Shown piece by piece: positions 33,495 through 54,500 of a stretch of DNA of 64,000 nucleotides; position 1 is the first letter of the stretch, and each line of letters opens with the position of its first letter. Origin of the DNA: Thermodesulfobacteriota bacterium (GTDB lineage Bacteria; Desulfobacterota; Desulfobaccia; Desulfobaccales; 0-14-0-80-60-11); the NCBI GenBank assembly GCA_049322355.1, contig JBMORG010000001.1, positions 19,410 to 83,409 on the forward strand, read 5' to 3'. The translations under genes were made by a program, and so were the position numbers. The notes below the pieces were generated by a model, which did no database searches, was not told where the DNA came from, and saw only the letters and a program-made list of their open reading frames with translations.

Positions 33495-33496
33495 AC

Positions 33497-35837: not shown

Positions 35838-35856
35838 ATTTGCAATTTTTGCAAAT
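35838..35856. promoter_or_regulatory. Palindromic TTGCAA operator-like site upstream of alpA
   Basis: atttgcaa-ttt-ttgcaaat (8-bp arms). An additional ttgcaaaa lies at 35808-35815. Confidence 0.35.
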
Positions 35857-35941
35857 TAAGGATTCCCGGTACTCATGAAAACTTATGATAGGTTCTGCAT
35901 TTAATAGAAACAAAAAGAATGGATCAATAAGGAGTGTTGAT

Positions 35942-36181
35942 ATGAGTAATTTAATATGGCGAGAACCTAAAGTCAAGGAAGAAACTGGTCTCTCAAAATC
36001 AACGAGATGGCGGCTTATGAAAGCCGGCCTTTTTCCTCAAAAGATTCAGCTTGGCCCCCGAGCTGTTGGATGGCGGGCTGAAGAAGTCATCGAATGGTGC
36101 CGGACCAGGCAAGAAGCAAAGGCCGAACCTGTGGCGAAGAAGAATCCCGACTCAACCGAAAATCAAGAGCTCCTGGCGTAG
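35942..36181 (+). CDS. alpA: AlpA-family phage/island transcriptional regulator (HTH)
   Basis: The ATG at 35942 is preceded by aataaggag. KVKEETGLSKSTRWRLMKAGLFPQKIQLGPRAVGWRAEEVIEWC is the typical AlpA/Phage_AlpA motif. Confidence 0.8.
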   Translation: MSNLIWREPKVKEETGLSKSTRWRLMKAGLFPQKIQLGPRAVGWRAEEVIEWCRTRQEAKAEPVAKKNPDSTENQELLA

Positions 36182-36206
36182 CTGGCCAGAAAAAAGGACG
36201 AAGAGA

Positions 36207-36962: not shown

Positions 36963-36971
36963 GATACGGAT

Positions 36972-39494
36972 ATGAATGATTCCCCTTTTCTCGAACGTTT
37001 GGCTGACCGCCTTCGGGCAAGCGATTATAAAAGTCCTCGCTTCAAAGATAACGGCCAGTATATGTCCAATTTGATTTGTCCGGAATGCGGGGATCCCTCT
37101 GCCTGGGCGTATTCCAATGCGCCGTGGTCAATCAATTGTAACCGGCTTAATAAATGCGGCACCAGAACAAAGACCTTAGACCTTTTTCCCGAGCTAATCA
37201 GCAACGTTGAGAAGGAATACACCCCCGAGGACGAAAACCGGCCCGCAACGATCTACTTGCAAAGAAGAGGTCTGAATAAATCCTTGAAGGGGCTGAAATA
37301 CCGCTACATGGCCAACTTGCGAGGCCTCAGCGGCGGCGTTATGTTCCCGGTAGGCCAAGATGAGCATGGTCAGCCCATCTTTAATGGGCGGCTTTTCGAC
37401 CCTCCCCCGAAAGAGGCGAAAGGCCACAACATCGGTTCCACTTCCGGCATGTTTTGGAAACACCCTGGTATCACCTATCACCCAGAAGAGGAGACGTTTG
37501 TCACCGAAGGCATAATTGACGCCCTTTCCCTAATCGAAATCGATCGCCAGGCCATCGCTGTTCTCTCTTCTGGCCAGGACCCCACGAAACTGGACCTCGG
37601 GGAATTTTCCAAATTGGTAACCGCCTTCGATAAAGACGAGGCAGGGAAAAAAGCCGCACAACGCTGGCACAAGGCATTTAAAGGTAAAATTAAAACGATA
37701 ACTCCCATTAAAGGGGACTGGAATGATCTTTTGACCAGTCGGCCTAAAGAAGAGGCGAAGAAATACTTCGAAGAAAAGATAGAGGAATTTAGGGTCCGGG
37801 GAAAACTGGCACTCGCAAAAACCGCGGGAGAGTATGCCCAAATCTTCTGCGATTTTTACCGTCGCCTCCTCGGCCTATTTCCTTTTGAGAAGCAATACTA
37901 CTACTCACAGGAGAGGAATGGTCCTCATGGGCCTGTGCTAATAACCAATCGCGTCTCAAACTTCACGCTCGATGTTCGACACTTTCAGCTTGAAACCGTT
38001 AACCAGGAGGAGCCGGTCAATAGATTTTCCCTCGAAATTAAGCCGCGCAAAGGGCAATCGACAGCCTGTTCGGTTACTGCTGAGGAGATTGCATCGCCTC
38101 ACGGCCTGACGACCATGTTCCTCCAGCGCGCCAGGGTGCTATGGATGGGCGGCAAACCGGAATCGTTGGCCCTGGCTGAATTGATTGTCGAGTCCGGCGC
38201 TCCCGTTGTTCGGCAATTACAGGCAACTGGCTATGACTCGGAATCGGGATGCTATGTTTTCAAAACTTTCCTGATCACCCCCAAGGGGCAAATGCTGCTG
38301 CCTAACAACCACGGCTTTTTCGAGGCAACTCGTGCACTTTATATACGGCCTGCCCCTCACCCCACTTTGAGCCCGGTTAAGGGCATCGCACCCAAAGAAG
38401 TGTGGTGGTTGATTTCTCTGGCCTGGGGGGATAAGGGCGTGGTGGCCGTGGTGTGGGTAGTGGCGAGTTGGTTTGTGAATCAGATAAAGAAAAGAATCGG
38501 CTTCTTCCCGTTCGCATCATTACACAAGGACCCCCAAACTGGAAAAACCCGCCTTGTGAGGACCCTGAACGCAATGCAGGGTCTTGATGAAGAAGGTTTG
38601 CCGATGGTGAAGGTTAACACGAGTAAGGGCGAAGTCCGTCAACTGGCGCAACGGTCTGGCCTGTTCAAGGCCCTGCTGGAAGGCAACAACGCAGAAAAGA
38701 TGCGATTTGATATGGAGACGATCCTGCCCTTGTATAACTCGAACCCATTACAAATAACGGCCAAAAAAACACTCGACATCCAAACCAGGGATGTACCCTT
38801 CCTATCGTCACTCATGTTTGTCCAAAACGTAGAACAATTCAGGTCTCGGGCGCAGCGGGAACGAGTAATATCATTGAAATTCGAGAAAAAAGACCTCACT
38901 GTTGAAACTAAAAAGGCGCTGGATGACTTATTGAAAATACCATTGGCACAACTATCACATTTTTTCGTTGATGTAATGGCTCATCGAAACCAAATTGAGG
39001 ATGAATGGTATGACGAATTTAAACACTGCCAAGAAGAGTTATATGAGGCAATTCCTGATAACCGCCTGAATGAAAATTACGCTCTGATATTAGCATTTCA
39101 TCGGTTGTTATGCAAGATCATCGAAATTGAATATGATCTAAGGCCATATATTGAACAGCTTGGTAAAGAGAAGTATGAAGAATGTAACCGGAGAGATGAA
39201 ACAGTTGCTGATCACTTTTTTAACTTACTTCTTGGTCTCGATCACGATGAAAGGGACCAACAAGCATGTTATAGAACAATAGCAGAGAACAATCAGCTAT
39301 TTATTCATATAGGCAAGGCATTAAAGAGGATTGACGATGCTGGATACCGCTTTACCGTGCAACTGAAGGACCTGCATGCATCGTTAAAAGAGCACCCTTC
39401 CTTTATTAAGAGCAATGACGGTCGGCAGCTGGGTGGAACGTATCAAAAGGGTTGGCTCTTTGACTATGAAAAGATTGTCACTGATGAGGGGTAA
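36972..39494 (+). CDS. Toprim-domain DNA primase / replication initiator of element 2
   Basis: Zn ribbon CPECGDPSAWAY...CNRLNKCG. Toprim motifs FVTEGIIDALSL and VTAFDKDEAGKKAA. A large C-terminal domain of unknown type follows. The gene is immediately followed by iterons. Confidence 0.8.
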   Translation: MNDSPFLERLADRLRASDYKSPRFKDNGQYMSNLICPECGDPSAWAYSNAPWSINCNRLNKCGTRTKTLDLFPELISNVEKEYTPEDENRPATIYLQRRGLNKSLKGLKYRYMANLRGLSGGVMFPVGQDEHGQPIFNGRLFDPPPKEAKGHNIGSTSGMFWKHPGITYHPEEETFVTEGIIDALSLIEIDRQAIAVLSSGQDPTKLDLGEFSKLVTAFDKDEAGKKAAQRWHKAFKGKIKTITPIKGDWNDLLTSRPKEEAKKYFEEKIEEFRVRGKLALAKTAGEYAQIFCDFYRRLLGLFPFEKQYYYSQERNGPHGPVLITNRVSNFTLDVRHFQLETVNQEEPVNRFSLEIKPRKGQSTACSVTAEEIASPHGLTTMFLQRARVLWMGGKPESLALAELIVESGAPVVRQLQATGYDSESGCYVFKTFLITPKGQMLLPNNHGFFEATRALYIRPAPHPTLSPVKGIAPKEVWWLISLAWGDKGVVAVVWVVASWFVNQIKKRIGFFPFASLHKDPQTGKTRLVRTLNAMQGLDEEGLPMVKVNTSKGEVRQLAQRSGLFKALLEGNNAEKMRFDMETILPLYNSNPLQITAKKTLDIQTRDVPFLSSLMFVQNVEQFRSRAQRERVISLKFEKKDLTVETKKALDDLLKIPLAQLSHFFVDVMAHRNQIEDEWYDEFKHCQEELYEAIPDNRLNENYALILAFHRLLCKIIEIEYDLRPYIEQLGKEKYEECNRRDETVADHFFNLLLGLDHDERDQQACYRTIAENNQLFIHIGKALKRIDDAGYRFTVQLKDLHASLKEHPSFIKSNDGRQLGGTYQKGWLFDYEKIVTDEG

Positions 39495-39790
39495 GGTTTC
39501 AGAGGTTTCACCAAGGTTTCATATAAGGTTTCAGTGAATAACCAGTATTTATCTATATCTTATATATATTGAAACCTCTGAAACCTCTAAAACTATATAT
39601 CAATTTATAGGGGTGACATAGATCAATGACAACCGGATATGAAAAAATTCTTGACCTGATGCACAGGAAAAACAAAATTTCCGATTCGAGGTTTCAGAGG
39701 TTTCACGGCAACTTAATTAGTTGTTATAATTCAGAAAAGAATGAAACCTCTCCCGAAACCTCAGAGGTTTCACCCGAAGTTTCAGCGGCT
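39495..39790. repeat. Iteron-type replication origin candidate: 12 GGTTTCA/TGAAACC heptamers around an AT-rich core
   Basis: Direct copies lie at 39495, 39504, 39515 and 39527. The AT-rich tract accagtatttatctatatcttatatatat spans 39541-39569. Inverted copies lie at 39570 and 39579. Further copies lie at 39690, 39699, 39742, 39754 (degenerate), 39766 and 39778 (degenerate). The 13-mer TCAGAGGTTTCAC occurs three times. Confidence 0.7.
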
Positions 39791-40594
39791 GCGCCCCCCA
39801 TTTCCTCCTCTTTAATTCCCGAAATCCAAGCCTGGATCGCCAGCGTCGTCGAGCTCGCCCTAATCGGGAAGCTGACCGAGGCCGTAGCGCTCTCCGTAAA
39901 ACCGGCATTTCAGTCAATCTTGGGTGAAGGTCCGGTGTGGTTCTGCCCGGACCAGGTGACTGCCGACAGTAAGGCCCCTGACTTGGCTTTTACCGGCGAA
40001 GAACTAGCTGTGGTCATCCCGCTCTTACACCACGGGGATCGGCAACTTGCGGAGGCGGTGGTCATGGCAAAGAGAATCCTGGGAGGGACCATCATGGTCT
40101 CTTCTTTAGACCCGGAAGCAGCGCAGCCTTCCGATGACCTGGCGGTTTTGAGTTCGCAGGAAGAGGCAAAGGATGATGGCAGCACAGGCCAGCAAAAGGG
40201 CGGGGTGAGTCAGTCAACCCCAGAGGGACTCGCCAGCCCCGGCCGGCATCTGGTGAAAATTTCCAAGGTGCTCTGCTACCTGCATAATTTTCCTGAATAC
40301 ACAGGCCCCAGAGCCCGCCTAGAGATGGAAATTCTCGAAGGTCCCGATACCGGTAAAACCATCGTCGATAACATCTCTTTGCCGCACCCGCAGGAACCAC
40401 CGGGCAGGAAGAAGCGCCGGATCGAAATTGCTTACCGCCTTGGCCTGATCCCGCATGGGGCAAGGGGTACCGTCAAGATAGATTGGAATTGCTTGGAAGG
40501 CAAAATCGGTCTGGCGCATTACGGTTATAAAACCATTTCCGGGCGTGTATTCCCCACGGTGGAGTGGGAAAAATATGAACACAAGGAGAGTTGA
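39626..40594 (+). CDS. Hypothetical protein; the 5' ~160 nt overlaps iterons, so the true start may be downstream
   Basis: A long ORF with no recognisable motif. The N-terminal peptide (RFQRFHG, ETSPETSEVSPEVS) is dictated by the repeat DNA. Confidence 0.4.
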   Translation: MTTGYEKILDLMHRKNKISDSRFQRFHGNLISCYNSEKNETSPETSEVSPEVSAAAPPISSSLIPEIQAWIASVVELALIGKLTEAVALSVKPAFQSILGEGPVWFCPDQVTADSKAPDLAFTGEELAVVIPLLHHGDRQLAEAVVMAKRILGGTIMVSSLDPEAAQPSDDLAVLSSQEEAKDDGSTGQQKGGVSQSTPEGLASPGRHLVKISKVLCYLHNFPEYTGPRARLEMEILEGPDTGKTIVDNISLPHPQEPPGRKKRRIEIAYRLGLIPHGARGTVKIDWNCLEGKIGLAHYGYKTISGRVFPTVEWEKYEHKES

Positions 40595-40595
40595 A

Positions 40596-40844
40596 ATGGA
40601 TACTACTGACTGGAATGACCCAATGGTAAAGGAAGTTTTGAAGCGGATGGACATCAGGAAGGAATTTGAACGATGGGGCGGCAAAATCCTGCCAGGCGCA
40701 GAGCCTAATTCTAAAGGCTGGATTGAAAGCGAGGCTATGTTTAATCAGGGTTATAGGGCTTTTATTAATATTGGCAACGGGCCAGATCGGGGAGCGTACG
40801 TTGAATTTCCTCCCGACGATTTCCCGGATAAATTGGACGGCTGA
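40596..40844 (+). CDS. Hypothetical small protein
   Basis: The ATG at 40596 is preceded by aaggagag. Confidence 0.4.
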   Translation: MDTTDWNDPMVKEVLKRMDIRKEFERWGGKILPGAEPNSKGWIESEAMFNQGYRAFINIGNGPDRGAYVEFPPDDFPDKLDG

Positions 40845-40881
40845 CCCCACCGACAAACCAACGATAAAAGGGAGACATAAA

Positions 40882-41337
40882 ATGACATATAAAGACGATG
40901 ATTCGAGAATGTCGCCTCGCGAGCTGAAATTCCTGGAGCATTATTTCTCAGGCTCCACGATGAAGGACGCCGTTAAAGCTGCAGGCTATAGAGGGGCAAG
41001 TGCCCCGGCACTTTGTAACACTGGGAGAGCGATTTTGACAAGATATGAGCAAAACACAAGCGCTCAGGAAATATTTCGCCGGGTAGGGGCCAGTGAGACC
41101 CGGATCGCCCAGCTTCTTCTGAATCTGGCCGAAAACGCGGAGTCTGAGGGCACACGAGTCCATGCACTGGGTATTCTGTCGAAATGTATGGGCCTGCAGC
41201 GGGAATCGAATGAACCCGTCCGGGGTGCAAAGATTATTATTTCAGGTCCTGATCTACCAAATGAGCCCGGCCCACCTCCTAACACAGGCCAGATGACTCA
41301 TCTTAAACAAACAACTCCTCTTAAGATTACGAGATGA
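40882..41337 (+). CDS. terS: Phage terminase small subunit-like protein (Terminase_2 type)
   Basis: The ATG at 40882 is preceded by aaagggaga. MSPRELKFLEHYFSGSTMKDAVKAAGYRGASAPALCNTGRAIL matches the LxPxxxxFxxxY...A...AGY...A...G pattern of small terminases. Confidence 0.65.
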   Translation: MTYKDDDSRMSPRELKFLEHYFSGSTMKDAVKAAGYRGASAPALCNTGRAILTRYEQNTSAQEIFRRVGASETRIAQLLLNLAENAESEGTRVHALGILSKCMGLQRESNEPVRGAKIIISGPDLPNEPGPPPNTGQMTHLKQTTPLKITR

Positions 41338-41437
41338 CGCACACTGTAATGAGGGGATGGTCACGGATCGAAAAAATGGACCCTCCCCTCAATATTCATT
41401 AATTTTCATATGTAACTTTGAATGGACATAAGGAAAA

Positions 41438-41866
41438 ATGACCAAATTTTCGGCAAAAAAACAGCTTAAAGGCAAGCCCCGTGGAAGACCGTTTCCGCCA
41501 GGTGTATCTGGTAACCCACGGGGCAGACCGAAAGGCAGGTTGAACAAAAGCAGCCTTTCTGTGCTGGAGGGGGTCGAAAAGGCGCTGGCGAAGATTAAAC
41601 GGGCTGAAGAAGAGCGGGCCAAGCCCCTGATTCTGGACAAAACGCGGCATTTTGAAGCCTGGTCAGACTGTTACATCCAAGATGGCATGCGGTTCCGCAA
41701 GGACAACTTGGAACGGGTAAACCCCAACGGCGACATCCCCCTCCGACCGAAGCGGTTAAATATAAGGGAGAATAGGCAGGCGGTGCTTTGGGGAGGGCGC
41801 AGATATTGGAGTCAATATGGCTGGTTGTTCGATCCATCCACATGGAAAGCAGTGAATCCTGATTAG
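41438..41866 (+). CDS. DUF5681-like phage-associated protein
   Basis: N-terminal GKPRGRPFPPGVSGNPRGRPKGRLNK (the GNPxGRPKG motif). Confidence 0.5.
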   Translation: MTKFSAKKQLKGKPRGRPFPPGVSGNPRGRPKGRLNKSSLSVLEGVEKALAKIKRAEEERAKPLILDKTRHFEAWSDCYIQDGMRFRKDNLERVNPNGDIPLRPKRLNIRENRQAVLWGGRRYWSQYGWLFDPSTWKAVNPD

Positions 41867-42054
41867 GGAGGCCGCTTGGCAGCAATTCCACGACCATTAT
41901 CACGTGTTAATTAGCCACATCTCCCCTCATTCCAAATCCAACCTCATTTATCGTATTCCCACGGGATGCCGATAGCTTCACAAAACCATTTGACCTATTG
42001 TTGCAAATGGCAATATGATGAAAAACAGCTTATCACATCAATGAGGAAGACTGT

Positions 42055-43569
42055 ATGGATGTGACCCGTGCGAATGGTAGCAGCCTCACCCTGTCTCAAC
42101 TCGAATCGCACCTTTGGGAAGCAGCCAACATTCTGCGCGGACCGGTTGATGCCGCCGACTTCAAGACCTACGTTTTTCCCCTCCTCTTTTTTAAGCGCAT
42201 TTCTGACGTACACGATGAGGAGTACCAAGCGGCATTGTCTGAGTCGGGAGGGGACGAAGAGTATGCCAGGTTCCCTCAAAATTACCGCTTTCAAGTCCCA
42301 GAAGATTGTCATTGGCGCGATGTCCGGGCGGTGACGACCAATGTTGGTCAGGCCTTCCAAACTGCCATGCGTGGTATTGAAACCGCAAACCCGGAAACGC
42401 TTTATGCTATCTTCGGCGATGCCCAGTGGACGAACAAGGACCGTCTCTCTGACACGCTATTGCGTGACCTAATTGAGCATTTCTCCCGGATCAACTTGGG
42501 CAACGAAGCGGCGCAGGCCGACATCCTCGGACAGTCTTACGAATATCTCATAAAAAAGTTTGCTGATCTCACCAATAAGAAGGCAGGAGAGTTTTACACC
42601 CCGCGTTCGGTTGTCCGGCTAATGGTAAACATCCTTGATCCCCAAGAGAGTGAATCTATCTATGATCCCGCTTGTGGCACCGGAGGGATGCTATTAGAGG
42701 CGATACACCATGTTCGAGAGCACCACGGTGACGACCGTACTCTCTGGGGCAGGCTTTCGGGCCAGGAAAAGAATCTGACCACCGCCGCCATTGCCCGCAT
42801 GAATCTTTTTCTACATGGGGCTGCTGATTTCAATATCGTGCGCGGCGATACATTGCGAAATCCAGCTTTTTTTTCAGGCGATAATCTCGCCACTTTCGAC
42901 TGCGTCATCGCCAATCCGCCATTCTCCCTTGAAAAGTGGGGAGAGGAAGTCTGGGCCAGTGATCCCTTTGGTCGGAACTTCGCCGGCATGCCCCCGGCTA
43001 AGAGTGGCGACTTCGCCTGGGTCCAGCACATGATTAAATCCATGGCACCGAAAACTGGCCGCATGGCGGTAGTCCTGCCCCACGGGGTTCTGTTTCGCAT
43101 GGGGGCCGAAGGCAAGATTCGCCAAGAACTTCTCAACATGGACCTTCTCGAAGCCGTTATCGGCCTTGGACCAAATCTCTTTTATGGCACCGGCCTCGCA
43201 GCCTGCATTCTGGTCTTCCGCCGGCGTAAAGCACTGGAGCGCAAGAACAAGGTACATATCATTGACGCTTCTCGGGAGTTCAAGAAAGGCCGGGCCCAGA
43301 ACGAATTACTCCCGGAACACGTTGACCGCATTTATCGGTTGTACCAGGATTATGCCAATGTCGATGGGGTTGCCCGAGTGGTCAACCTGGAGGAGATCGC
43401 ATCAAACGATTACAACCTCAATATTCCCCGCTATGTTGAGCCCAAAGTGGAACACGAGGTGCTCACGGTGGAGGAGGCCAAGGGACATCTGCGGCTTAGC
43501 GCTGATGGGGCCTTTGAGGCAGAGGAAAAACTCATCAGCCTGCTCAAGAGCGAGGGGCTTCTGACTTAA
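42055..43569 (+). CDS. hsdM: Type I restriction-modification N6-adenine DNA methyltransferase subunit (free M subunit)
   Basis: HsdM N-terminal domain LESHLWEAANILRG. Motif I is YDPACGTGGML and motif IV is VIANPPFS. Confidence 0.9.
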   Translation: MDVTRANGSSLTLSQLESHLWEAANILRGPVDAADFKTYVFPLLFFKRISDVHDEEYQAALSESGGDEEYARFPQNYRFQVPEDCHWRDVRAVTTNVGQAFQTAMRGIETANPETLYAIFGDAQWTNKDRLSDTLLRDLIEHFSRINLGNEAAQADILGQSYEYLIKKFADLTNKKAGEFYTPRSVVRLMVNILDPQESESIYDPACGTGGMLLEAIHHVREHHGDDRTLWGRLSGQEKNLTTAAIARMNLFLHGAADFNIVRGDTLRNPAFFSGDNLATFDCVIANPPFSLEKWGEEVWASDPFGRNFAGMPPAKSGDFAWVQHMIKSMAPKTGRMAVVLPHGVLFRMGAEGKIRQELLNMDLLEAVIGLGPNLFYGTGLAACILVFRRRKALERKNKVHIIDASREFKKGRAQNELLPEHVDRIYRLYQDYANVDGVARVVNLEEIASNDYNLNIPRYVEPKVEHEVLTVEEAKGHLRLSADGAFEAEEKLISLLKSEGLLT

Positions 43570-43621
43570 TTGCAACGACGAGCATGGAACCTGAAATTAC
43601 CTAAGGGGTTGTCACGGAAAT

Positions 43622-45853
43622 ATGAGAGACGCACAAAAACCTGACCATATTAGCCTTAATACGCTTATTGGAAGACTCAAGGAAGGACGGTTCGTTATTC
43701 CAGACTTCCAGCGCGAATTTGAATGGCGCCCTTGGGACATCCGGGACTTGATGCGCTCCATTTTTCTCGACTATTACATCGGTAGTCTTCTCCTGTGGAA
43801 AGGCAAGAAAGAGAACTTCGCAGCTCTCTCGTGTCAAGCGATTCATGGGTTCGAGGGAGAAGAGAGACCCGAATCCATCGTGCTCGATGGCCAGCAGCGC
43901 CTCACTGCGATGTATTACGCCTTTCTCGCACCCGATGTTCCACTACCTCACCGGGCCAGTCGCGCCTTTTATTTCATCAATATTGAGAAATTCATGGCTG
44001 AGGTATACGACGAGGCCTTTGGCTACGATTGGCTTTCACGCCGATGGTTGAAAATCCTCGGTAACCGGGAGGCCCAATATGCGGACCATATCTTCCCTCT
44101 ATCGGTCGTAGGTGCAGGTGGGCGTGATCTGTGGAAATGGATAGATGGTTATGAGAAGTTTTGGCTTAGAAAAGCATCGGAAGCGGAATCCTCAGGCGAT
44201 ACAGCAAAATTCGTTGCCGCAACCCAGCATGCTGAAAATGCGATCGCCTTCGACGAACATCTCAGGGGGATCACTGAACAATACCAAATCTCTTACATAG
44301 AGCTGGATCAAGACCTCAGTATTGACAAGGTATGTGATATCTTCACGCAAATCAATAGCCGGGGTATTCGCCTCGACATTTTTGATCTCATGAATGCGCT
44401 ATTGAAGCCCAAAGACCTCAAACTCAAAAAAATGTGGCGTGACGCTGCTCCGCGTCTTGAGTTCGTCAATAGCGAGAAGATGAATGTCTATATCCTCCAA
44501 GTCATGTCCATCCTGAGACAAAATTACTGCTCGCCCAAGTACCTTTATTTTCTTCTCCCTGGTCAAGAGAAAACAGTCCGCAATCCGGATGGCACCCGCC
44601 AAAAGGAGATTCTGATCGCAGACATTGCCGAATTCGAGAGGCTTTGGAACCAAGCTGTCTCTTCCCTGGAAGCTGCCATCTATGTGTTGCGACAGCCCCA
44701 AGAATTTGGTGCCCTCTCCTCTGATTATTTGCCATATGTCTCCATCCTGCCAATTTTCGCCGCTCTTCAGGCTCACGTTAAAACGATTCCGGCAATGCGT
44801 CGCCTCGATGCCCAACGCAAGATTCGCCACTGGTATTGGGCCTCCGTCTTCAATAACCGCTATTCAGGCGCTGTAGAATCCACCAGCGCCCGTGATTTTC
44901 TTGACCTCAAGGCATGGATTGATGATGACGCCGCCGAACCGCCCTTAGTCTTTGAGTTTGCCAACACTTTCCGCAACCTGGATCTTCGCAAGGAAACCAA
45001 GCGCGGAACTTCGGTTTATAACGGAATATTTAATCTCTTGGTTCTTCAGGGCGCTCGGGATTGGATGAGCGGCACAGTCCCACAACATAACAATCTGGAT
45101 GATCACCATATTGTTCCCGCGTCCTGGGGCGCCAGAAATATCGAAGGTGGATTGGGTCACACAATCCTGAACCGGACGCCTTTGACGGCCGAAACCAACC
45201 GGCAGGTGATCCGCGACCGCCTGCCCAACGCCTACCTGCCGGAACTCATTGGGGCAAGCGGAGAAGGGACCGTTCGTGCCATCTTGGAGTCACACTTTAT
45301 TTCGCCTGCCGCATTCGCTATCCTACTGCGAAATCCCTTTGGTCCCGAAGATTTTCAATCCTTTATCTCTGAGCGCCAGAAGACGATCCTTGAAGCCATT
45401 GAAAACCTGCTTATAAAGGAACGGCTGGACTTACCACCGCAGCTTCGAGAGCTCGATGCGGCGATTGAGCAAATAGAGTTATCTATCCGTGAAGCAATCC
45501 AATCAACTCTCAACGGCGATATATCTCTTATCCCTTCCCATGTGCTCGTGAAAGTTGAAGAACGTATTTCACGGGCGACCAAAAAGACCGCGGCCCTCAA
45601 TGGGGATTATTATCAAACCTTGACCGGCAAGTTGGAATACTTTGATTTGCGAGAACTCCAAGACACCATCACCAACAGTTCTCTCTGGCCACATTTCCAA
45701 CCGCAATTCGTAAATAAAGAAACCTTTGTTAAAAAGTTCGACCAGCTCGGTGAACTGCGGAATGGCATTCGACACAGCCGGACGGTGGACGACATTACCC
45801 GGAAAGAGGGTGAAGCCTCAATACTCTGGTTTAAGCAAGTGCTTGGTAAATGA
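43622..45853 (+). CDS. DUF262 (ParB-like NTPase/nuclease) plus DUF1524 (His-Me/HNH-like) plus C-terminal HEPN-like domain protein
   Basis: DUF262 motifs FVIPDFQREFEW and LDGQQRLTAMY. DUF1524-like DDHHIVP...NRTPLTAETNR. The C-terminal ELRNGIRHSR is an Rx4H HEPN-type motif. The stop overlaps the next start (ATGA at 45850-45853). Confidence 0.75.
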   Translation: MRDAQKPDHISLNTLIGRLKEGRFVIPDFQREFEWRPWDIRDLMRSIFLDYYIGSLLLWKGKKENFAALSCQAIHGFEGEERPESIVLDGQQRLTAMYYAFLAPDVPLPHRASRAFYFINIEKFMAEVYDEAFGYDWLSRRWLKILGNREAQYADHIFPLSVVGAGGRDLWKWIDGYEKFWLRKASEAESSGDTAKFVAATQHAENAIAFDEHLRGITEQYQISYIELDQDLSIDKVCDIFTQINSRGIRLDIFDLMNALLKPKDLKLKKMWRDAAPRLEFVNSEKMNVYILQVMSILRQNYCSPKYLYFLLPGQEKTVRNPDGTRQKEILIADIAEFERLWNQAVSSLEAAIYVLRQPQEFGALSSDYLPYVSILPIFAALQAHVKTIPAMRRLDAQRKIRHWYWASVFNNRYSGAVESTSARDFLDLKAWIDDDAAEPPLVFEFANTFRNLDLRKETKRGTSVYNGIFNLLVLQGARDWMSGTVPQHNNLDDHHIVPASWGARNIEGGLGHTILNRTPLTAETNRQVIRDRLPNAYLPELIGASGEGTVRAILESHFISPAAFAILLRNPFGPEDFQSFISERQKTILEAIENLLIKERLDLPPQLRELDAAIEQIELSIREAIQSTLNGDISLIPSHVLVKVEERISRATKKTAALNGDYYQTLTGKLEYFDLRELQDTITNSSLWPHFQPQFVNKETFVKKFDQLGELRNGIRHSRTVDDITRKEGEASILWFKQVLGK

Positions 45854-48504
45854 CCCGCATTTCTCAGCAGCAACTGGAATCCTATCTCTGGGGCGCGGCC
45901 ACCCTCTTACGGGGGACCATTGACGCCGGAGACTACAAGCAGTTTATCTTCCCACTGCTGTTCTACAAACGGCTTTGCGACGTTTTCGATGAGGAGACCT
46001 TGTTGGCCCTGGCTGAGTCCGGAGGGGATGCCGACTTCGCCGCCTATCCGGAGAACCACCGGTTCCAGATCCCGGTTGAGGCCTATTGGCGAGAAGTGCG
46101 GCAAGTAGCCAGGGACGTGGGACGTACCCTGCAAAACGCCCTCCGGGCCATAGAAACCGCCAATCCTGATAAGCTCTACGGCATCTTCGGCGATGCCCAA
46201 TGGACCAACAAGGACCGCCTCCCCGACGCCATGCTACGGGACCTGATCGAGCACTTTTCCTCTCTCCATCTCACCCTGACCAACCTGCCGGAAGACGAGC
46301 TGGGCAACGGCTACGAATACCTCATCAAGAAGTTCGCCGACGACTCCGGTCACACTGCCGCCGAGTTCTACACCAACCGCACGCTGGTCCACCTTATGAC
46401 TGAAATGCTGGACGTGCAACCCGGGGAATCCGTCTACGACCCCACCTGCGGTTCCGGTGGCATGTTGCTTTCCTGCATTGCCCATCTGCGCCGGCAGAAT
46501 AAGGAGTGGCGAAACGTCCGCCTCTACGGGCAGGAGCGGAACCTTATGACTTCCGCCATCGCCCGGATGAACTGCTTCCTCCACGGCGTCGAGGACTTTC
46601 ACATCGTGCGCGGCGACACCCTGGCCTCGCCCAAGTTCGTGGAGGGTGACCGCCTCCGGCGCTTTGACGTGGTGCTGGCCAATCCGCCCTATTCCCTCAA
46701 GCAGTGGAACCGTAGCGCCTTCACCAATGATCCCTGGGGCCGCAACCTCTTCGGCACCCCGCCCCAGGGCCGGGCCGACTATGCCTTCTGGCAGCATATT
46801 ATCTGCAGCCTGGCGCCCCGGACTGGCCGCTGCGCCATCCTTTTTCCCCATGGCGTGCTCTTTCGCCAGGAAGAAGCGGACATGCGCTCCAAACTCATCG
46901 AGGCCGACCTCATCGAGTGCGTTCTGGGCCTGGGGCCGAACCTCTTCTACAACTCGCCCATGGAGGCCTGCGTTGTCGTCTGCCGGACGGCAAAACCCAA
47001 GGCCCGCAAAGGCAAGATCCTCTTCATCAACGCGGTCAACGACGTCACCCGGGAACGGGCCCAGAGTTTCCTTAATGATGCGCATATTCAGCGCATCCTC
47101 GCCATTTACCAGGCGTTCCAGGATGAGTCAGGTTTTGCCCGCGCGGTATCCATCGAAGAAATACGCTCCAAAGGCGGCAACCTGAGCATCCCGCTTTACG
47201 TCTCCGCACCAAAAGCTAACGGACAACTCCAGGTTTCGGCAAACGGCTCTTTGTCAGAATCGCTTACCGCGTGGCTGTCGTCAGCCCGCAACGCCCGAAG
47301 TGCTATTGCCGCCGTCCTTGAGTCTAAAGCGATCAAGGAAAATGACAGCTTAGCTGCCAAGCCGACCAATACATTGCCCGCATGGCTGAAACGGGATGAA
47401 TGGAAGAGGCTGCCGTTTAGCTGCTTCGCGGAGAACGTCAACCAGCGTGTCGAGCCCATCGAGGCGGGGGATGAAATTTACGTGGGATTGGAGCATCTCG
47501 ACTCAGAGAATCTGCATATACGGAGGTGGGGCAAAGGAAGCGATGTCATCGGCACCAAGTTAAGGTTCCGCAAGGGAGATCTGATTTTCGGCCGGCGCCG
47601 CGCTTACCAGCGCAAACTGGCGGTGGCCCAGTTCGACGGTATCTGCTCAGCGCACGCCATGGTGGTGCGCGCCAAGCCGGACGAGGTGCTGCCGGAGTTC
47701 TTGCCCTTCCTGATGATGAGCGACCGCTTCATGAATCGGGCGGTGGAGATTTCCGTCGGCTCACTCTCGCCCACCATCAATTGGAAGACCTTGAAGTTTG
47801 AAGAGTTCTCCCTCCCCCCACTGGACCAGCAGCGGCGCATTGCAGAAATTCTTTGGTCGGTGGATGAGGTGGAACAACGGTTGCAGCAACTAAATCAAGC
47901 TGTAGCCGGAGCCATGGATTCATGGTTGGACGAGCAGCTTTCTTATAACGTCCGTGAGATTAGAATCAATGATTTTGGCGAAGTAGTTACTGGAACTACA
48001 CCCAAAACATCTGGAAAGCATTTTTACGATCCCCCGGAACGCCTATTTGTTTCTCCTGCTGATATAACTGACTCTCGCTACGTGACGACAACGGAAAAAC
48101 GTGTTTCCCAAACTGGACTGGAATCGGGACGCCCAATTCCACGTGATGCTATCATGGTTGTCTGCATAGGTTCTACCATAGGTAAGGTCGCGATGGCCAG
48201 CGAGCTGTGCATCACGAACCAACAGATAAACTCAGTAATCTGCAACTCTGAATATCATCCTTTGGTTGTCTACCACTTATTGCGCCGCCAGCATAACTTG
48301 TTCCGGCAGACAGCAGGATGTACAGCACTTCCCATCCTTAACAAAGGCCAATTTGGGTCTCTACGGATTCGAGTCCCTAAACCTGGAAGGGACCAACAAA
48401 TCGCCAAAAAAATGATTGAGTTTGAACAAGCAGTCAATACGACCATAGAGGAATTAACCATCGCAAGAAACCTAAAAACCACAATGGTCAACTATCTATT
48501 ATGA
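45850..48504 (+). CDS. hsdM-hsdS: Type I R-M methyltransferase (second HsdM paralogue) fused in frame to a complete HsdS specificity subunit
   Basis: The N-terminal ~470 aa parallel the first HsdM (FGDAQWTNKDRL, LRDLIEHFS, YEYLIKKFAD, YDPTCGSGGML, VLANPPYS, GLGPNLFY). The C-terminal ~400 aa have two target-recognition-like regions separated by the conserved spacer LPPLDQQRRIAEILWSVDEVEQRL. The C-terminal helix is QQIAKKMIEFEQAVNTTIEEL. Confidence 0.8.
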   Translation: MTRISQQQLESYLWGAATLLRGTIDAGDYKQFIFPLLFYKRLCDVFDEETLLALAESGGDADFAAYPENHRFQIPVEAYWREVRQVARDVGRTLQNALRAIETANPDKLYGIFGDAQWTNKDRLPDAMLRDLIEHFSSLHLTLTNLPEDELGNGYEYLIKKFADDSGHTAAEFYTNRTLVHLMTEMLDVQPGESVYDPTCGSGGMLLSCIAHLRRQNKEWRNVRLYGQERNLMTSAIARMNCFLHGVEDFHIVRGDTLASPKFVEGDRLRRFDVVLANPPYSLKQWNRSAFTNDPWGRNLFGTPPQGRADYAFWQHIICSLAPRTGRCAILFPHGVLFRQEEADMRSKLIEADLIECVLGLGPNLFYNSPMEACVVVCRTAKPKARKGKILFINAVNDVTRERAQSFLNDAHIQRILAIYQAFQDESGFARAVSIEEIRSKGGNLSIPLYVSAPKANGQLQVSANGSLSESLTAWLSSARNARSAIAAVLESKAIKENDSLAAKPTNTLPAWLKRDEWKRLPFSCFAENVNQRVEPIEAGDEIYVGLEHLDSENLHIRRWGKGSDVIGTKLRFRKGDLIFGRRRAYQRKLAVAQFDGICSAHAMVVRAKPDEVLPEFLPFLMMSDRFMNRAVEISVGSLSPTINWKTLKFEEFSLPPLDQQRRIAEILWSVDEVEQRLQQLNQAVAGAMDSWLDEQLSYNVREIRINDFGEVVTGTTPKTSGKHFYDPPERLFVSPADITDSRYVTTTEKRVSQTGLESGRPIPRDAIMVVCIGSTIGKVAMASELCITNQQINSVICNSEYHPLVVYHLLRRQHNLFRQTAGCTALPILNKGQFGSLRIRVPKPGRDQQIAKKMIEFEQAVNTTIEELTIARNLKTTMVNYLL

Positions 48505-51476
48505 AAACCTTCACCGAATCCAACACCGTCGAACAGATGATCCTGGATGCCGCCACGTCGCCATTGGGCGCGGGCGAAGTCCGACAGGGCTATGCAGTAG
48601 ATTCGCTGGGCAGAGAGTTTCGACCGGCCCAGTGGAAGTACGTCCCTGCCACCGAACTCCCCCGCCAAAGCGCAGACGTCATGATCGAGACCTGGGTTCG
48701 AGAAGCGCTAATCAGGCTCAATCCCGAGATCGCTGCCCAGCCTGAACGGGCCGACGAGGTCATTTATAATCTGCGGGCCTGCATCCTCTCGGTGCAAGCC
48801 GATGGCATCGTGCGCGCCAACGAAAATTTCATGGCCTGGCTCCGGGGCGAAAAGACCATGCCCTTCGGGCCGGGTGGTGAACACGTCCCTATCCGTTTGG
48901 TAGATGCCGACCAGCCGGGCAACAACCGTCTTATCGTCACCAACCAATGGACATACCAAGCCGGACCGGTGGAGAAACGGTTCGATGTGGTCTTTGTGGT
49001 CAACGGCCTGCCCCTGGTCGTCGGCGAGGCTAAGACCCCTTCCCGCAGCGCGGTTACCTGGTTTGATGGCGCCTTTCAGATCAACCAGATCTATGAAAAA
49101 GAGGCGCCGGCCATGTTTGTTCCCAACGTCTTTTCCTTTGCCACCGAAGGCAAGCGCTACCGCTACGGCGCAGTGCGCATGCCTATCGACCTGTGGGGCC
49201 CCTGGCGGGATGAGGAAAACCAGGAGGAAGGGCAACTCCACCATGTCAAGGCTACGGTCCAGAGCATGCTCCGGCCCGAAGTGGTGCTGGACATCTCCCA
49301 GAACTTCACCCTGTTCGCCACCGATAAGAAACATCGCCGCATCAAAATCATCTGCCGTTACCAGCAGTATGAAACTGTCAATAAGATGGTGGCCCGGGTG
49401 GTGGCAGGCTACCCCAAGAAAGGCCTGATCTGGCATTTCCAGGGTAGCGGCAAATCCCTGCTCATGGTCTTTGCGGCTCAAAAGCTCCGGCTGCATGAGA
49501 AACTTCTTAATCCCACGGTAATCATCGTGGTGGACCGCATCGACCTGGACACCCAGATCACCGCCACTTTCAACGCCGCAGACGTGCCCAACATGGTGGG
49601 GGTGGCGACTCGCCAGGAGTTGCAGACTCTGCTGGGCCAGGACGTGCGTAAGGTGCTCATTACCACTATCCACAAATTCGCCGAGGCGGACGACAGACTG
49701 AATGAGCGGTCCAACATCATCGTGATGGTGGACGAAGCCCACCGCACCCAGGAAGGGGACCTGGGGCGCAAGATGCGCGCCGCGCTGCCCAATGCTTTCC
49801 TCTTTGGCCTCACCGGCACACCCATCAACAAGGCCGACCGGAACACCTTCTGGGCCTTCGGCGCCGACGAGGACGAGAAGGGCTATATGAGCCGCTACTC
49901 GTTTGAGGAATCCATCCGGGACCGGGCCACCCTGCCCCTGCATTTTGAGGCCCCGGAAGTCAAGCTGAAGATTAACAAGGCAGCCATTGACGAAGCCTAC
50001 GCCCAGCTTACCGACCAACTGAGTGAGCAGGATAAAGATGATCTGGCCAAACGAGCCGCCAAAATGGCCGTGTTGGTGAAAAACCCCGAGCGGGTGCGGG
50101 CCGTAGTCCAGCATATCGTCTCGCACTTCCAATCTAAAGTAGAGCCCAATGGTTTCAAAGCGCAGGTAGTGACCTTCGACCGGGAGTGCTGTGTCCTTTA
50201 TAAGCAGGTGATGGACGAGTTAATCGGCGAGGAAGCCAGCGCGATTGTTATGCATTACGCAGCGGGCGATCCCTCGGCATGGAAGCCGTATGCGCTCAAC
50301 CGTGATGAAGAAGAGAAATTGCTGGATCGGTTCCGGGACACGGCCGACCCGCTGAAGTTCGTCATTGTCACCTCAAAACTCCTGACAGGCTTCGACGCCC
50401 CCATCCTTCAGGCGATGTATCTCGACAAACCCATGAAGGACCATAACCTCCTGCAGGCCATCTGCCGGACCAACCGCACCTATGGCCAGACCAAGACCCA
50501 TGGCCTGATTGTGGACTATATAGGCATTTTTGACGATGTGGCCCGGGCCCTGGACTTTGACGAAAAGGCGGTCCAGAAGGTGGTGAGCAACATTGACGAA
50601 CTGCGTCAGGCGCTCCCAATGCAGATGCAGAAATGCCTCGCCTTTTTCGCCGGCGTAGATCGTACCGTAGGGGGTTATGAGGGCCTGATGGCCGCCCAGC
50701 AGTGCCTACCAAACAATGAGACCCGGGATAAATTTGCGGCTGAATTCTCGGTACTGGGCACCATTTGGGAGGCGCTCTCACCTGATCCGTGTCTGGGTCC
50801 TTATGAAAAGGATTACCGGTGGCTGACCCAGGTTTATGAATCGGTGAAGCCACCCAGCGGTAATGGCAAGCTACTCTGGCACGCCCTGGGGGCCAAGACG
50901 GTGGAGCTCATCAACCAGAACGTGCACGTGGAGTCTGTCCGTGACGACCTGGAGACGCTGGTGCTCAACGGCCAGGTATTGGAAGACTTCCTCAAGGATA
51001 TTGAACCGGGCAAAAGGGCGAAGGAAGTCGAGATTAAGCTGGTGGCCCGGTTGCGCAAGCATCTTGGCAACCCCAAATTTACCGCCCTGGGCGAGCGCCT
51101 GGAAAAGATCAAAGAGCGCCATGAACAGGGCCTTATTACCAGCCTGGAGTTCCTAAAGCAAATTCTCGAGCTGGCCAAAGATGTGGTTGAAGCCGAGAAG
51201 GAAACCGACCCCGAGGAGGAGCGGGATAAAGCCAAAGAGGCCCTTACTGAGCTGTTTAAGGAAGCTAAGGGGACAAACACCCATATTATCGTTGAACGTA
51301 TTGTGGCGGACATCGACGACATCGTGAAGAAGGTTCGTTTCCCCGACTGGCAGCGTACCACCCAGGGCGAACGCCTGGTACAAAAGGAACTGAGGAAGGT
51401 ATTGCTTAAGTACCAGCTTCATCGCGACCAGGAGCTTTTTGATAAGGCTTACGCTTACATAAGGCAATATTATTGA
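48501..51476 (+). CDS. hsdR: Type I restriction enzyme R subunit (SF2 translocase plus nuclease)
   Basis: FQGSGKSLLM (Walker A), MVDEAHRTQ (DEAH), LTGFDAP and QAICRTNR are present. The start overlaps the upstream stop (ATGA at 48501-48504). Confidence 0.9.
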   Translation: MKTFTESNTVEQMILDAATSPLGAGEVRQGYAVDSLGREFRPAQWKYVPATELPRQSADVMIETWVREALIRLNPEIAAQPERADEVIYNLRACILSVQADGIVRANENFMAWLRGEKTMPFGPGGEHVPIRLVDADQPGNNRLIVTNQWTYQAGPVEKRFDVVFVVNGLPLVVGEAKTPSRSAVTWFDGAFQINQIYEKEAPAMFVPNVFSFATEGKRYRYGAVRMPIDLWGPWRDEENQEEGQLHHVKATVQSMLRPEVVLDISQNFTLFATDKKHRRIKIICRYQQYETVNKMVARVVAGYPKKGLIWHFQGSGKSLLMVFAAQKLRLHEKLLNPTVIIVVDRIDLDTQITATFNAADVPNMVGVATRQELQTLLGQDVRKVLITTIHKFAEADDRLNERSNIIVMVDEAHRTQEGDLGRKMRAALPNAFLFGLTGTPINKADRNTFWAFGADEDEKGYMSRYSFEESIRDRATLPLHFEAPEVKLKINKAAIDEAYAQLTDQLSEQDKDDLAKRAAKMAVLVKNPERVRAVVQHIVSHFQSKVEPNGFKAQVVTFDRECCVLYKQVMDELIGEEASAIVMHYAAGDPSAWKPYALNRDEEEKLLDRFRDTADPLKFVIVTSKLLTGFDAPILQAMYLDKPMKDHNLLQAICRTNRTYGQTKTHGLIVDYIGIFDDVARALDFDEKAVQKVVSNIDELRQALPMQMQKCLAFFAGVDRTVGGYEGLMAAQQCLPNNETRDKFAAEFSVLGTIWEALSPDPCLGPYEKDYRWLTQVYESVKPPSGNGKLLWHALGAKTVELINQNVHVESVRDDLETLVLNGQVLEDFLKDIEPGKRAKEVEIKLVARLRKHLGNPKFTALGERLEKIKERHEQGLITSLEFLKQILELAKDVVEAEKETDPEEERDKAKEALTELFKEAKGTNTHIIVERIVADIDDIVKKVRFPDWQRTTQGERLVQKELRKVLLKYQLHRDQELFDKAYAYIRQYY

Positions 51477-51569: not shown

Positions 51570-54500
51570 GTGGCAAGTTCAATGACAGATGAGGAAAAGA
51601 GCCTATCCCTCCTGCGATTTCTGAAGGATGTAGTTTCCATCAGAAGGCAACGTCTGCCGCGTTATACCGACAACGATAAGCTTATATGGTTTACCAAGCT
51701 CCCTCGAGAACGCCAGGAATGCCGTTCCCCCCTTCTTTTTTGGGAATCAGAGGAGACGCCTGATTTTTGGTTAGAAGTTAAGAAGACCCGCCCGCCATTA
51801 CGAGCGTCCCTCCCCGGAGAACTTACTGATTGGATTGACTCCAAAGAATTGGAAGATGTAAACAAAGAACCTGAAATCCCCTCCTCCATTACTGTCTTTG
51901 TCGAACAGAACGTGCCGGACCCGGAAGCACCGCCAGGGCAACAACGTATTATTACGGAAAAAGTTCCAGTCCAGCACCACCTTGAGGATTACCCTAAGCT
52001 GCAAGAAGCATGGCTCAATTATCTTGTTAATGAATGGGAGCCATGGGCTGAGAAGAAACGTCGTTGGCAAGAAGTTCAAACTATTTATGAAGACGTTGAC
52101 TTCATGCGGCGGCGGCTGGAAGAATCTGAAGAGCGTTTTGAACTGTTTTTAGGCCTTGGATTACTTGTTTGGAAAGATTCTACGGAGAAACTAGTCCGAC
52201 GTCATCTTCTCACTGGACTTGCTGAAATAGACTTTGATGCTGCCCGTGGGATTCTCCGAGTTGTTCCGGCCGCTACTTTTGAGACATTCCGCATTGAAAT
52301 GGACATGCTTGAACTCCAGGATCGCCCACGGATTGACGAACAACAAATCCAAAAAAAACTTGAAGATTTAGATATCAATGCCTGGGATACATGCAAGGTA
52401 GGGGAAATCCTGCGTGAAATTGCCAATAGGGCTAAAGGAGACTCCCAGGTAGATGAGGATTCTTTTGAAATCCCGCGGCCTGGAGATAACACTCTTAGGG
52501 TTTCTTTTGCGCCAGCTTTTGTTTTACGTGAACGTCGTTTCACCGCACCGGAAGAGGTAATCGGGCGACTTTTGGATCGAATAAGCGACTCACCTAACGA
52601 AACCACTAAGCCCTGGGACCAATTTTTAGCCGAAGGAGTTTCAAATGATCAAGAGGTTAATAATGTTTTTGGAGAGAACACTATCACTTACCCCCAATCG
52701 GTTGAACGCATATTCTTTCCTCGGCCCACAAATGAGGAGCAGCGTCAAATAATTCATCGCCTTCAAGCCTCGTCATCCGTAGTGGTGAAAGGTCCACCAG
52801 GTACCGGGAAAAGCAATACCATAGCCAACCTTATAAGCCATCTTTTGGCTACTGGGGAACGGGTCCTGGTGACTGCCCAGGCACCTAAGGCGCTCGATGT
52901 CCTTCGGAACATGGTTCCCCGAGGTCTTCAGAACCTGTGTCTTACTGCATTGAGTTCCTCCAGAGAGGATCAACGCCTCTTGGAGGAAGGGGTTCGGGGT
53001 ATTGTTGGTCGAAAAAATGATTGGGAAACGGAAAAGGAGAACTGGCCTCACGAGATAACAGAACGAGATCTTCGATTAAACCATCTGGAAAAAGAACTGG
53101 CAAACACCGAGCGTCAATTGAGGGAATACCGTGAGGCTGAAACTTTCCCTCATATCTTGCCAGGTGGTTACGAGGGGACCGCAGCCCAAATCGCCAGACA
53201 ACTGGAGCAAGAGCGTGAAACCCTGGGGTGGTTCCCCGAAGTTGTTCAGAGCCAAAATAATTTTCCCTTATCTGAAGATGAATTACTACTCTTGGCTGAA
53301 ATGCATAGAAAATTAACTCCTGAGAACGAACAAGAGCTGGATTTGGAAACCGGAGATTTTGACCTCCTCAGCCCTTCGGATTTTTCACACGTTTTGACTG
53401 GCTTAGAGGAGGCAATTGAAAAGGCCGACACTGCCTCACAAAGTGCTGATCCCGACAAATTGGAAATTTTGAAAGATTCCGCTACCGAGACCATCAACAA
53501 GACAGCAATCACTCTTAAAACAATAGAAGAAAATTGGCTACGCTCTACCCGTGCCTTGGGGGAGATGGCTCATTCAGTATATGAAGATTTATTGGTGACC
53601 CATCGAAGCCATTGGAATCTTCTTTATCAACACACTAAGACAATCCTTGAGCAAATCGAAGTCAATCAGGAAAGACTTGCCGGGGCTGAAGTACATATCC
53701 CCCCAGAGTTGAGCCTTCCTCAGCTTTTAAGCGATACAGAGCGTCGCTTAGATCACCTTGTTAAGGGGGGTCGGATAGGCATATGGTTTTTTCAACCAAA
53801 AATCATCAGGGAGACCAATTATCTCGAAGAACAATGCCGAGTGAATGGTTGTCGACCGCAAGAGCAAGAGCATCTCGAAAGGATAATAGCCTGTCTACGT
53901 TTGCAAGCTAACATACAAGAATTCCAGGCACAATGGCCCCAACCCATCGATATTATGAATGGGGATAATATCCGGGCTGCCATGGCCGCCCGAGAGTTGG
54001 TGACCGAATTGGAACACATCCTGTCTCTGTTTGATGATTTCGGTAATGACGTCGTTCCATGTATACCGGTATCGTTTAGAGCCACTCTGGGTAGTCAAGC
54101 GCAACGGTTAATTTGGCTTAAAGCCATTGAAGCAGAACTTGCCCGCCGTGATCTTGAAACCCATCAGGAACCACTGTCTGATTGCCACCAGCAAATCCAG
54201 AGTTGCCTCAATAGTGGTAGGGCCCATCCATCCTTGTCCAGACTTGCTGAAGCCATATATGCTCACGACCGTGCAGCTTGGCATGGAGCTTGGGAACAGC
54301 GAGAAATTGTTAAGGAAAACCGCCTGCGCCTGAAAAAGTATCGTGAACTGATTAGTCGGCTCAGACCCCTTAGCCCCGGTTTGCCAGAGTTGTTACAGAC
54401 CCATCAAGGCGATCAAGAATGGACACCTCGGCTTTTGGCATTGGAGAAAGCCTGGCATTGGGCTTTAGCCTGCAACTGGATTGCGGCAACTTCAGACCCA

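Follow-up and report, generated by a model that had tools for sequence, protein, structure and literature searches.

The locus and its genes

The subject of this analysis is a type I restriction-modification (R-M) operon in which a modification subunit (HsdM, or M) forms a fusion with the subunit for specificity (HsdS, or S). It lies on a 64-kb stretch of DNA from a Thermodesulfobacteriota bacterium (contig JBMORG010000001.1), and this whole stretch is called the window below. The + strand open reading frames (ORFs) between about 42 and 51.5 kb were analysed, and their products were assigned with Pfam and NCBIfam. Four large ORFs, not three, are found on this strand. An earlier, sequence-only reading had named a free HsdM of 504 amino acids (aa) and an 884-aa fusion, and both are present in the ORF list where it had placed them; a 743-aa gene standing between the two had escaped it.

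The first gene, hsdM1 (42055 to 43569, + strand), encodes the free methyltransferase subunit M1, of 504 aa, with the domains HsdM_N and N6_Mtase (4.9e-101). It is predicted to form N6-methyladenine (m6A), that is, to be an adenine methyltransferase (A-MTase). Its motif IV, also missed before, is NPPF and not NPPY (residues 287 to 290, nucleotides 42913 to 42924, + strand), and the protein contains AGEF as well. The second gene (43622 to 45853, + strand) encodes the GmrSD/BrxU-like protein of 743 aa, with an N-terminal GmrSD_N (DUF262) match at 1.9e-30 and, towards the C-terminus, a weak Pfam match to HEPN_RiboL-PSP.

The third gene, on the same strand (45850 to 48504), encodes a single chain of 884 aa in which HsdM_N, N6_Mtase (4.4e-87) and two stretches of Methylase_S are recognised. 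Residues 1 to 450 (45850 to 47199) comprise the N-terminal and catalytic domains of a second HsdM, M2, predicted to form N4-methylcytosine (m4C; C-MTase). This M2 has an NPPY motif of its own, as the sequence-only reading had seen, at residues 278 to 281 (nucleotides 46681 to 46692); AAEF is also there, and an NSPME loop occupies residues 368 to 372. The M-S junction, made of the C-terminal tail helix of M2 and a linker (residues 451 to 515, 47200 to 47394), is in frame and has no stop. The S part then begins with a target recognition domain, TRD1 (residues 516 to 657, 47395 to 47820), assigned to the cytosine half-site and predicted to read CCC. It continues, from 47821 to 48501, with the helix of conserved region 1 (CR1, residues 658 to 698), the variable domain of the adenine half-site, TRD2 (699 to 847), and the CR2 helix (848 to 884), Pfam placing Methylase_S at 702 to 866. 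At about 375 aa, the S part has the length of a complete two-TRD S subunit (383 aa for the S of PacII), so that the claim of a second HsdM running without a stop into a complete HsdS holds.

The last gene, hsdR (48501 to 51476, + strand), encodes a restriction subunit (HsdR, or R) of 991 aa with nuclease, superfamily 2 (SF2) motor and C-terminal domains (Pfam HSDR_N, SWI2_SNF2 and T1R_D3-like); it scores 505.9 bits against TIGR00348, for a cut-off of 284.55. The stop codon of the DUF262 gene overlaps the start of M2-S in an ATGA, and the same overlap joins the stop of M2-S to the start of hsdR. Promoter and terminator scans of the region gave counts not above shuffle expectation. One promoter-like site is well placed 5′ of M1: a weak sigma-70-like candidate, TTGACC-18-TATGAT (41990 to 42019, + strand, 10 of 12 matches), 36 nucleotides before the start codon. 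Nothing in E. coli genomes or plasmids matched the 9.4-kb region in a megablast search.

Two HsdM paralogues with the signatures of m4C/m6A type I systems

Classical type I enzymes, such as EcoKI and EcoR124I (families IA to IE), are R2M2S1 complexes in which one M gene provides two identical M protomers, both forming m6A. The window operon resembles them in its domain set, HsdM_N plus N6_Mtase, a two-TRD S and an HsdR with nuclease and SF2 motor, and presumably also in having a bipartite target, translocation and distant cleavage. It differs in having two M paralogues with different catalytic signatures: an alignment of M1 with the M part of the fusion gives 51% identity over 491 aa (E = 9e-179). 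The sequence-only reading had described the second HsdM as homologous but diverged, and all the shared blocks it had listed (FGDAQWTNKDRL, LRDLIEHFS, YEYLIKKFAD, PHGVLFR and GLGPNLFY) do fall within this alignment. What the non-equivalence of the two proteins means had not been seen: NPPF in M1 against NPPY in M2 at motif IV is the diagnostic difference between two methylases, the NPPF/AGEF protein being predicted to form m6A and the NPPY/AAEF protein m4C.

Type I systems with two similar M subunits, which form an M1M2S methylase, were described by Morgan et al. in 2016 (NAR, PMC5100572). Using APPA mutants, these authors demonstrated that M1 (NPPF) forms m6A and M2 (NPPY) m4C. In their subgroup M1 comes first, M2 adjoins S and R stands at the end; more than 300 such two-M systems are in the REBASE catalogue, and 6 of the 10 characterised systems have extra ORFs between the M genes. 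They also reported an NSPME loop of M2 beside the flipped base, and found that cytosine-recognising components are alike and adenine TRDs diverse (PMC5100572). A crystal structure of the M1M2S-DNA complex of PacII, from Pseudomonas alcaligenes (target CCC-N5-RTTGY), followed in 2022 (PMC9613975; 7VRU, 7VS4). It has AGEF in M1 and AAEF in M2, and its TRD1 reads CCC and serves M2, TRD2 serving M1.

The window proteins show each of the sequence features among these. The gene order is M1 (42055-43569), M2-S (45850-48504), R (48501-51476). M1 contains 'KKAGEFYTPR' and VIANPPFSLEKW, and M2 contains 'HTAAEFYTNR', VLANPPYSLKQW and 'LFYNSPMEACV'. Among 94 fused proteins N278, P279, P280, Y281, N368, M371 and E372 do not vary, and S369 and P370 hardly do. 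The same AGEF/NPPF and AAEF/NPPY split separates the two M paralogues of PacII, and in searches against solved structures the best matches are reciprocal: M1 finds PacII M1 first (7vru_A, 612 bits, against 473 bits for PacII M2, 7vru_B), and the M2 part finds PacII M2 first (643 bits, against 450 bits for PacII M1). Residues 516-782 of the S part match residues 8-279 of PacII S (7vru_C) with 202 bits. As block conservation among fused proteins (below) shows, the S part has a conserved N-terminal TRD1 and a variable TRD2. In PacII, TRD1 contacts the bases through R75, R76 and H94 and the backbone through Y78, Q79 and K81 (PMC9613975), and all six residues are kept in the window when its S part is aligned to PacII S. 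The C-terminal tail and the CR1 and CR2 helices are further common features. The difference from PacII is that M2 and S are separate chains there and one chain here; identity is 61% for M2 (Foldseek) and 56% for TRD1 (fusion residues 516-675).

Other type I-like arrangements do not fit. Rather than a single hsdM for both protomers, as in classical type I, the operon has two intact M paralogues, which are paired across 72 loci (next section). Neither does one chain carry nuclease/motor, methyltransferase and TRD together, as in type ISP or type IIG enzymes: HsdR is separate, and the fusion has M and S domains only. We conclude that the locus very likely belongs, as an intact system, to the m4C/m6A ('non-canonical') type I R-M subgroup, and that an integrative element carries it within a defence island.

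The sequence-only reading had proposed a methylase with two non-equivalent M protomers, built from one free M and one M-S fusion. In substance this agrees with the expected M1M2S heterotrimer in which M2 and S form one chain, but it is not the departure from established knowledge that was announced, given the work of Morgan et al. 2016. Likewise, the layout is indeed not the standard hsdMSR one, two M paralogues replacing the single hsdM, but it had already been described for the m4C/m6A subgroup. The whole layout, with its fusion and the ORF between the M genes, has been in print since 2016 and received a structural explanation in 2022; the operon adds an example to a described type of system and does not define another. 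It contributes little beyond annotation, namely one more predicted m4C/m6A system, from an uncultured Thermodesulfobacteriota, whose cytosine half-site is probably CCC and whose adenine half-site would be new, and it opens no long-standing question.

Conservation of the M1/M2 pair in related loci

An alternative that the sequence-only reading had itself raised is that M1 is a solitary methylase, orphan of a second, decayed type I system, and does not work with M2-S. An unrelated gene of 2.2 kb does separate M1 from M2-S, and the ORF list shows no second S or R gene accompanying M1. Related loci were compared as follows. A scan with one genome per species gave 548 relatives, and the best 80 loci, from many bacterial phyla and methanogenic archaea, were taken; ORFs were called in all 80 and compared with the window proteins, and 81 M2 were scored. 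M1 is upstream of M2 in 72 of the 72 loci that have more than about 1.5 kb of upstream DNA, often abutting it directly with a 4-nucleotide overlap. The eight loci without M1 all begin less than 1.5 kb from a contig end. NPPF and AGEF are present in all 68 scored M1, NPPY in 81 of 81 M2 and AAEF in 80 of 81. Each M groups with its own family: median identity to the window protein is 81% for M1 orthologues and 79% for M2 orthologues (M2 part), against about 52% between paralogues.

The conserved pair and the perfectly split catalytic signatures rule out an orphan M1, to which we give next to no probability. Extra ORFs between M1 and M2, as mentioned above, are found in the majority of the characterised systems, and the characterised homologues reach full activity only with both M subunits, M2 plus S alone being inactive (PMC5100572, PMC9613975). 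M1 is thus best regarded as the partner of M2-S. Co-occurrence of a free M with the M-S fusion, for which a database check had been suggested, was observed in every fused locus with enough flank, and the homologous loci showed M1 to be neither missing nor a pseudogene.

Of the 81 M2, 40 are fused to S and 41 are separate proteins of about 500 aa, usually with S further downstream; because the query was a fused protein, the sample leans to fused forms, and 40 in 81 is not a prevalence. HsdR is found downstream of S in most loci that reach far enough, with scores of about 1600-1750 bits.

In several loci from metagenome-assembled genomes (MAGs), ORFs are split: M1 in L001 (8832-10133), and hsdR in L003, L016, L034 and L063. 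These could be frameshifts of long-read assemblies or genuine decay; by this count loss or breakage affects R more often than the M1/M2 pair. The slots between M1 and M2, M2 and S, and S and R of the 80 loci (L001-L080) hold 0.4 to 6 kb of variable cargo. Among 95 cargo ORFs the recurrent Pfam families were HATPase_c_4 (11) with Schlafen AlbA_2 (10), AAA_21 and AAA_15 (OLD-like), and further DUF4062, Mrr_cat, Fic, AbiEii, AIPR and UvrD-helicase. That the three intergenic slots hold many alternative defence genes is a small point beyond the 2016 and 2022 papers. In this fusion-biased sample, separate M2 and S are nearly always at least 1.4 kb of cargo apart, and adjacent M2 and S are nearly always fused.

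The M2-S fusion is real and widespread

Could the fusion be an assembly or sequencing artefact, a missed stop or frameshift at an ATGA-type overlap between separate M2 and S genes? The window is part of a MAG, the neighbouring genes of the operon overlap by ATGA, so that a single indel could fuse two of them, and the length of the fusion (884 aa) is nearly exactly that of PacII M2 plus S (504 + 383 aa). However, the same continuous ORF recurs in some 40 independent loci and in over 120 protein clusters, which come from a variety of assemblies and phyla. It is also present in the complete genome of a cultured isolate, Desulfobacca acetoxidans, whose junction is 66% identical with the frame unchanged, and for one fused system the 2016 paper gives a measured methylation motif (PMC5100572). 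An artefact cannot explain a continuous ORF that recurs in independent assemblies, including a complete isolate genome, and we consider this explanation extremely unlikely. The assembled sequence of the junction itself shows no stop and no frameshift; read data with either of them had been named by the sequence-only reading as what would refute the fusion.

A search of protein collections found an identical fusion protein in a Thermodesulfobacteriota MAG. The more than 120 clusters with the fused domain set are 58-82% identical to it, nearly all of about 890-900 aa and with the same three Pfam domains, and the PADLOC model MTase_I (896 positions) matches residues 1-694 of the fusion. Fused M2-S was found in at least some 40 species-level genomes, ranging from Thermodesulfobacteriota, Acidobacteriota and Nitrospira to methanogenic archaea. 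The literature holds a single natural case, M2.Dac11109IV (PMC5100572); the natural M2-S fusion is common and phylogenetically broad, another small point beyond the 2016 and 2022 papers.

In an AlphaFold2 (AF2) model of the fusion (predicted local distance difference test, pLDDT, 82.6), the M2 tail forms a helix (468-490), followed by TRD1, a long helix (658-698), TRD2 and a second long helix (848-883). The junction helix has a pLDDT of about 86 and low-confidence segments on both sides. Foldseek searches with this model gave 7vru_B, 7vru_A and 7vru_C as top matches. Conservation was measured in blocks of 25 residues, by averaging the identity to the window sequence over 31 other fused proteins (32 proteins in all). 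It is 0.52-0.97, mostly 0.75-0.97, in the M2 catalytic part (residues 1-450), 0.23-0.34 in the tail and linker (451-515), the lowest of the M2/TRD1 half, 0.5-0.7 in TRD1 (516-675), and 0.11-0.18 over CR1, TRD2 and CR2 (676-884). This profile, with M2 high, TRD1 intermediate and TRD2 hypervariable, agrees with the pattern of the 2016 paper (PMC5100572). In the fusion, neighbouring M2 and S genes are simply joined end to end, and the M2 tail helix is kept. That M2, and not M1, was fused fits the position of the M2 gene, adjoining S, and the finding that in PacII M2 is the subunit unable to bind S alone.

Artificial counterparts exist. Engineered HsdM-HsdS fusions of EcoKI and of S. aureus CC398-1 are active, and the purified EcoKI fusion gave an active complex only when free HsdM was added (PMC6158711). 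Like the window protein they join M to S end to end, with the stoichiometry of one free M plus one M-S that the sequence-only reading had proposed. They are laboratory constructs of one-M systems, in which free and fused M are the same protein, whereas the window fusion is natural and its M is a different paralogue from the free M1. The engineering of asymmetric type I methylases could conveniently start from natural single-chain M2-S scaffolds.

Comparison with Desulfobacca acetoxidans and the predicted target

The closest characterised relative is probably Dac11109IV of D. acetoxidans DSM 11109, which recognises CCC-N5-RTTC, a measured methylation motif (PMC5100572). The D. acetoxidans locus retrieved here (L081, complete genome CP002629.1), which would be that of Dac11109IV, encodes an M1 of 499 aa, a DUF262 protein of 743 aa, an M2-S of 896 aa and an HsdR remnant of 283 aa. 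The order M1, 743-aa DUF262 gene, M2-S, R is that of the window, as is the start-stop overlap between the DUF262 gene and M2-S; the difference lies in hsdR, only 283 aa there and the full 991 aa in the window. The 283-aa gene (14928-15779 of L081, after M2-S) matches Pfam HSDR_N and ArsP_1 and is followed by thioredoxin and LMWPc (low-molecular-weight phosphatase) genes. The apparent truncation of hsdR would leave D. acetoxidans with a modification-only system.

Identity between the two loci is 87% for M1, 87% for the catalytic part of M2, 66% for the tail and linker, with no frame change, and 86% for TRD1; it is 39% for CR1, 20% for TRD2 and 16% for CR2. As TRD2, CR1 and CR2 are unrelated to those of D. 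acetoxidans, the adenine half-site of the window system must differ. Its target is predicted to combine a CCC half-site, modified to m4C, with a different adenine half-site; the CCC prediction derives solely from the similarity to the TRD1s of D. acetoxidans and PacII.

Proposed assembly and function

By analogy with the characterised homologues, M1 (NPPF/AGEF) and M2-S (NPPY/AAEF) would form a 1:1 complex equivalent to the M1M2S heterotrimer of PacII, in which the C-terminal helices of both M proteins pack against the two coiled-coil helices of S. TRD1, which directly follows M2 in the chain, would read the cytosine half-site, predicted to be CCC, and offer it to M2 for N4-methylation, and TRD2 would read the different adenine half-site on the other strand and offer it to M1 for N6-methylation. 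At unmethylated sites HsdR would join the complex, translocate DNA and cut at a distance. In PacII, M1-S forms first and M2, which alone cannot bind S, joins second (PMC9613975); the fusion would covalently tether this very subunit. The 743-aa GmrSD-like gene would be independent defence cargo.

Four points weigh against assigning the locus to a working m4C/m6A system. Both methylation activities (m4C and m6A), the CCC half-site, restriction and the mode of assembly are all drawn by homology from the characterised enzymes. The AF2 model is that of the fusion monomer, and the M1:M2-S interface is outside its reach. TRD1s that read GCC or TCY are also mutually similar within the m4C/m6A family, and the comparison here was with CCC TRD1s only. 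Finally, the locus in D. acetoxidans was equated with Dac11109IV from the name of the organism and the architecture. Domain content, motifs, orthology, synteny and the conservation pattern were observed directly.

The fusion might also alter function: a tethered M2-S could act as a cytosine methylase or DNA binder independently of M1, which would then be dispensable or regulatory, and the fused forms would make up a distinct sub-lineage. A covalent link would remove the dependency of M2 on a pre-formed M1-S, and on a neighbour-joining tree of 78 M2 domains the fused state is clustered (11 changes, against 26 in shuffles) as well as widespread in bacteria and methanogenic archaea. Against this, an intact M1 is kept in every fused locus with enough flank, the DNA-bound closed state of PacII requires the M1-M2 interface (PMC9613975), and Dac11109IV has an ordinary bipartite m4C/m6A motif. 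The tail helix of M2 appears retained in the model, which suggests the same four-helix-bundle assembly. The tree itself is star-like and poorly resolved, and the fused state is not monophyletic on it. We find such a change of function very unlikely. We also judge very unlikely the wider proposal that the M2-S form is a distinct, widespread sub-lineage in which the covalent link may replace a weak, M1-dependent recruitment of M2, changing the order of assembly or allowing M1-independent cytosine methylation, and that, separately, the recurrent GmrSD-HEPN gene could be functionally coupled to the system instead of being mere cargo. When considered as a single clade on this poorly resolved tree, the fused proteins cluster but do not come out as monophyletic.

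The embedded GmrSD/BrxU-like gene

The family formed by the 743-aa protein and its homologues is unusually uniform, with 740-743 aa and 71-92% identity across phyla; the homologue of D. acetoxidans is 80% identical. The family profile matches BrxU (7p9k, E = 1.3e-12). An invariant motif, DDHHI (493-497)...N517...N526, looks to us like that of a His-Me-finger nuclease; a Pfam scan of the 743-aa protein gave no DUF1524 match. A second invariant motif, RNxxxH, close to the C-terminus (713-718), is HEPN-like. The AlphaFold model of the protein is poor (pLDDT 67.6, and below 50 in the N-terminal domain), and gave no significant Foldseek match in the PDB.

The gene occupies the M1-M2 slot in the window, in D. 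acetoxidans and in four other loci (L027, L050, L074 and L086). As it also turns up in the operon of a one-M type I system (L085) and away from type I systems altogether (L084 and L087), it is mobile cargo. A dedicated accessory role in m4C/m6A systems was considered for it and rejected, as homologues 72-73% identical stand in the one-M operon L085, by a PLD-SNF2/MmeI-like system (L084) and by UvrD/PDDEXK genes (L087).

Genes surrounding the operon in the window

The operon sits in a defence island on an integrative element. Directly 3′ of hsdR, a gene at 51570-57263 (+ strand) encodes a protein of 1897 aa with the superfamily 1 helicase domains AAA_11 and AAA_12 and an MTES_1575/DUF559 nuclease domain. 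Its best matches in defence libraries were PADLOC PDC-S37 (219 bits), NCBIfam ProA (228 bits, far under cut-off) and Hhe, and this helicase-nuclease is probably a separate single-gene defence system. Convergent with it, at 57398-61171 (- strand), lies a DRT type 1 gene, whose 1257-aa reverse transcriptase-nitrilase product matches PADLOC Drt1a over its full length (1288 bits).

Upstream of the operon, from 23562 to 41866, extends the backbone of a mobile element. It comprises an M78/IrrE-like peptidase (23562-24344, - strand), a DDE transposase of insertion sequence (IS) type (26280-27398, - strand), a Toprim + DUF927 primase-like protein with a Cch helix-turn-helix (28121-30826), two tyrosine integrases (32255-33454 and 33728-34948), a second Toprim protein, of 840 aa (36972-39494), and a small DUF5681-like ORF (41438-41866). 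A tRNA scan of the window found none, so that the attachment site could not be deduced from a tRNA gene. The GC content is low in a patch at 24-26 kb.

The first 18 kb of the window (1-18000) hold a housekeeping-looking cluster that probably serves exopolysaccharide synthesis, with glycosyltransferases (GT1/GT4 and GT2), an AMP-binding enzyme and a ParA/MinD-like ATPase; a low-GC segment (0.35) lies within it at 6-8 kb. After this cluster come genes for a metallo-beta-lactamase-fold protein, a LysR regulator and a B12-binding radical SAM enzyme.

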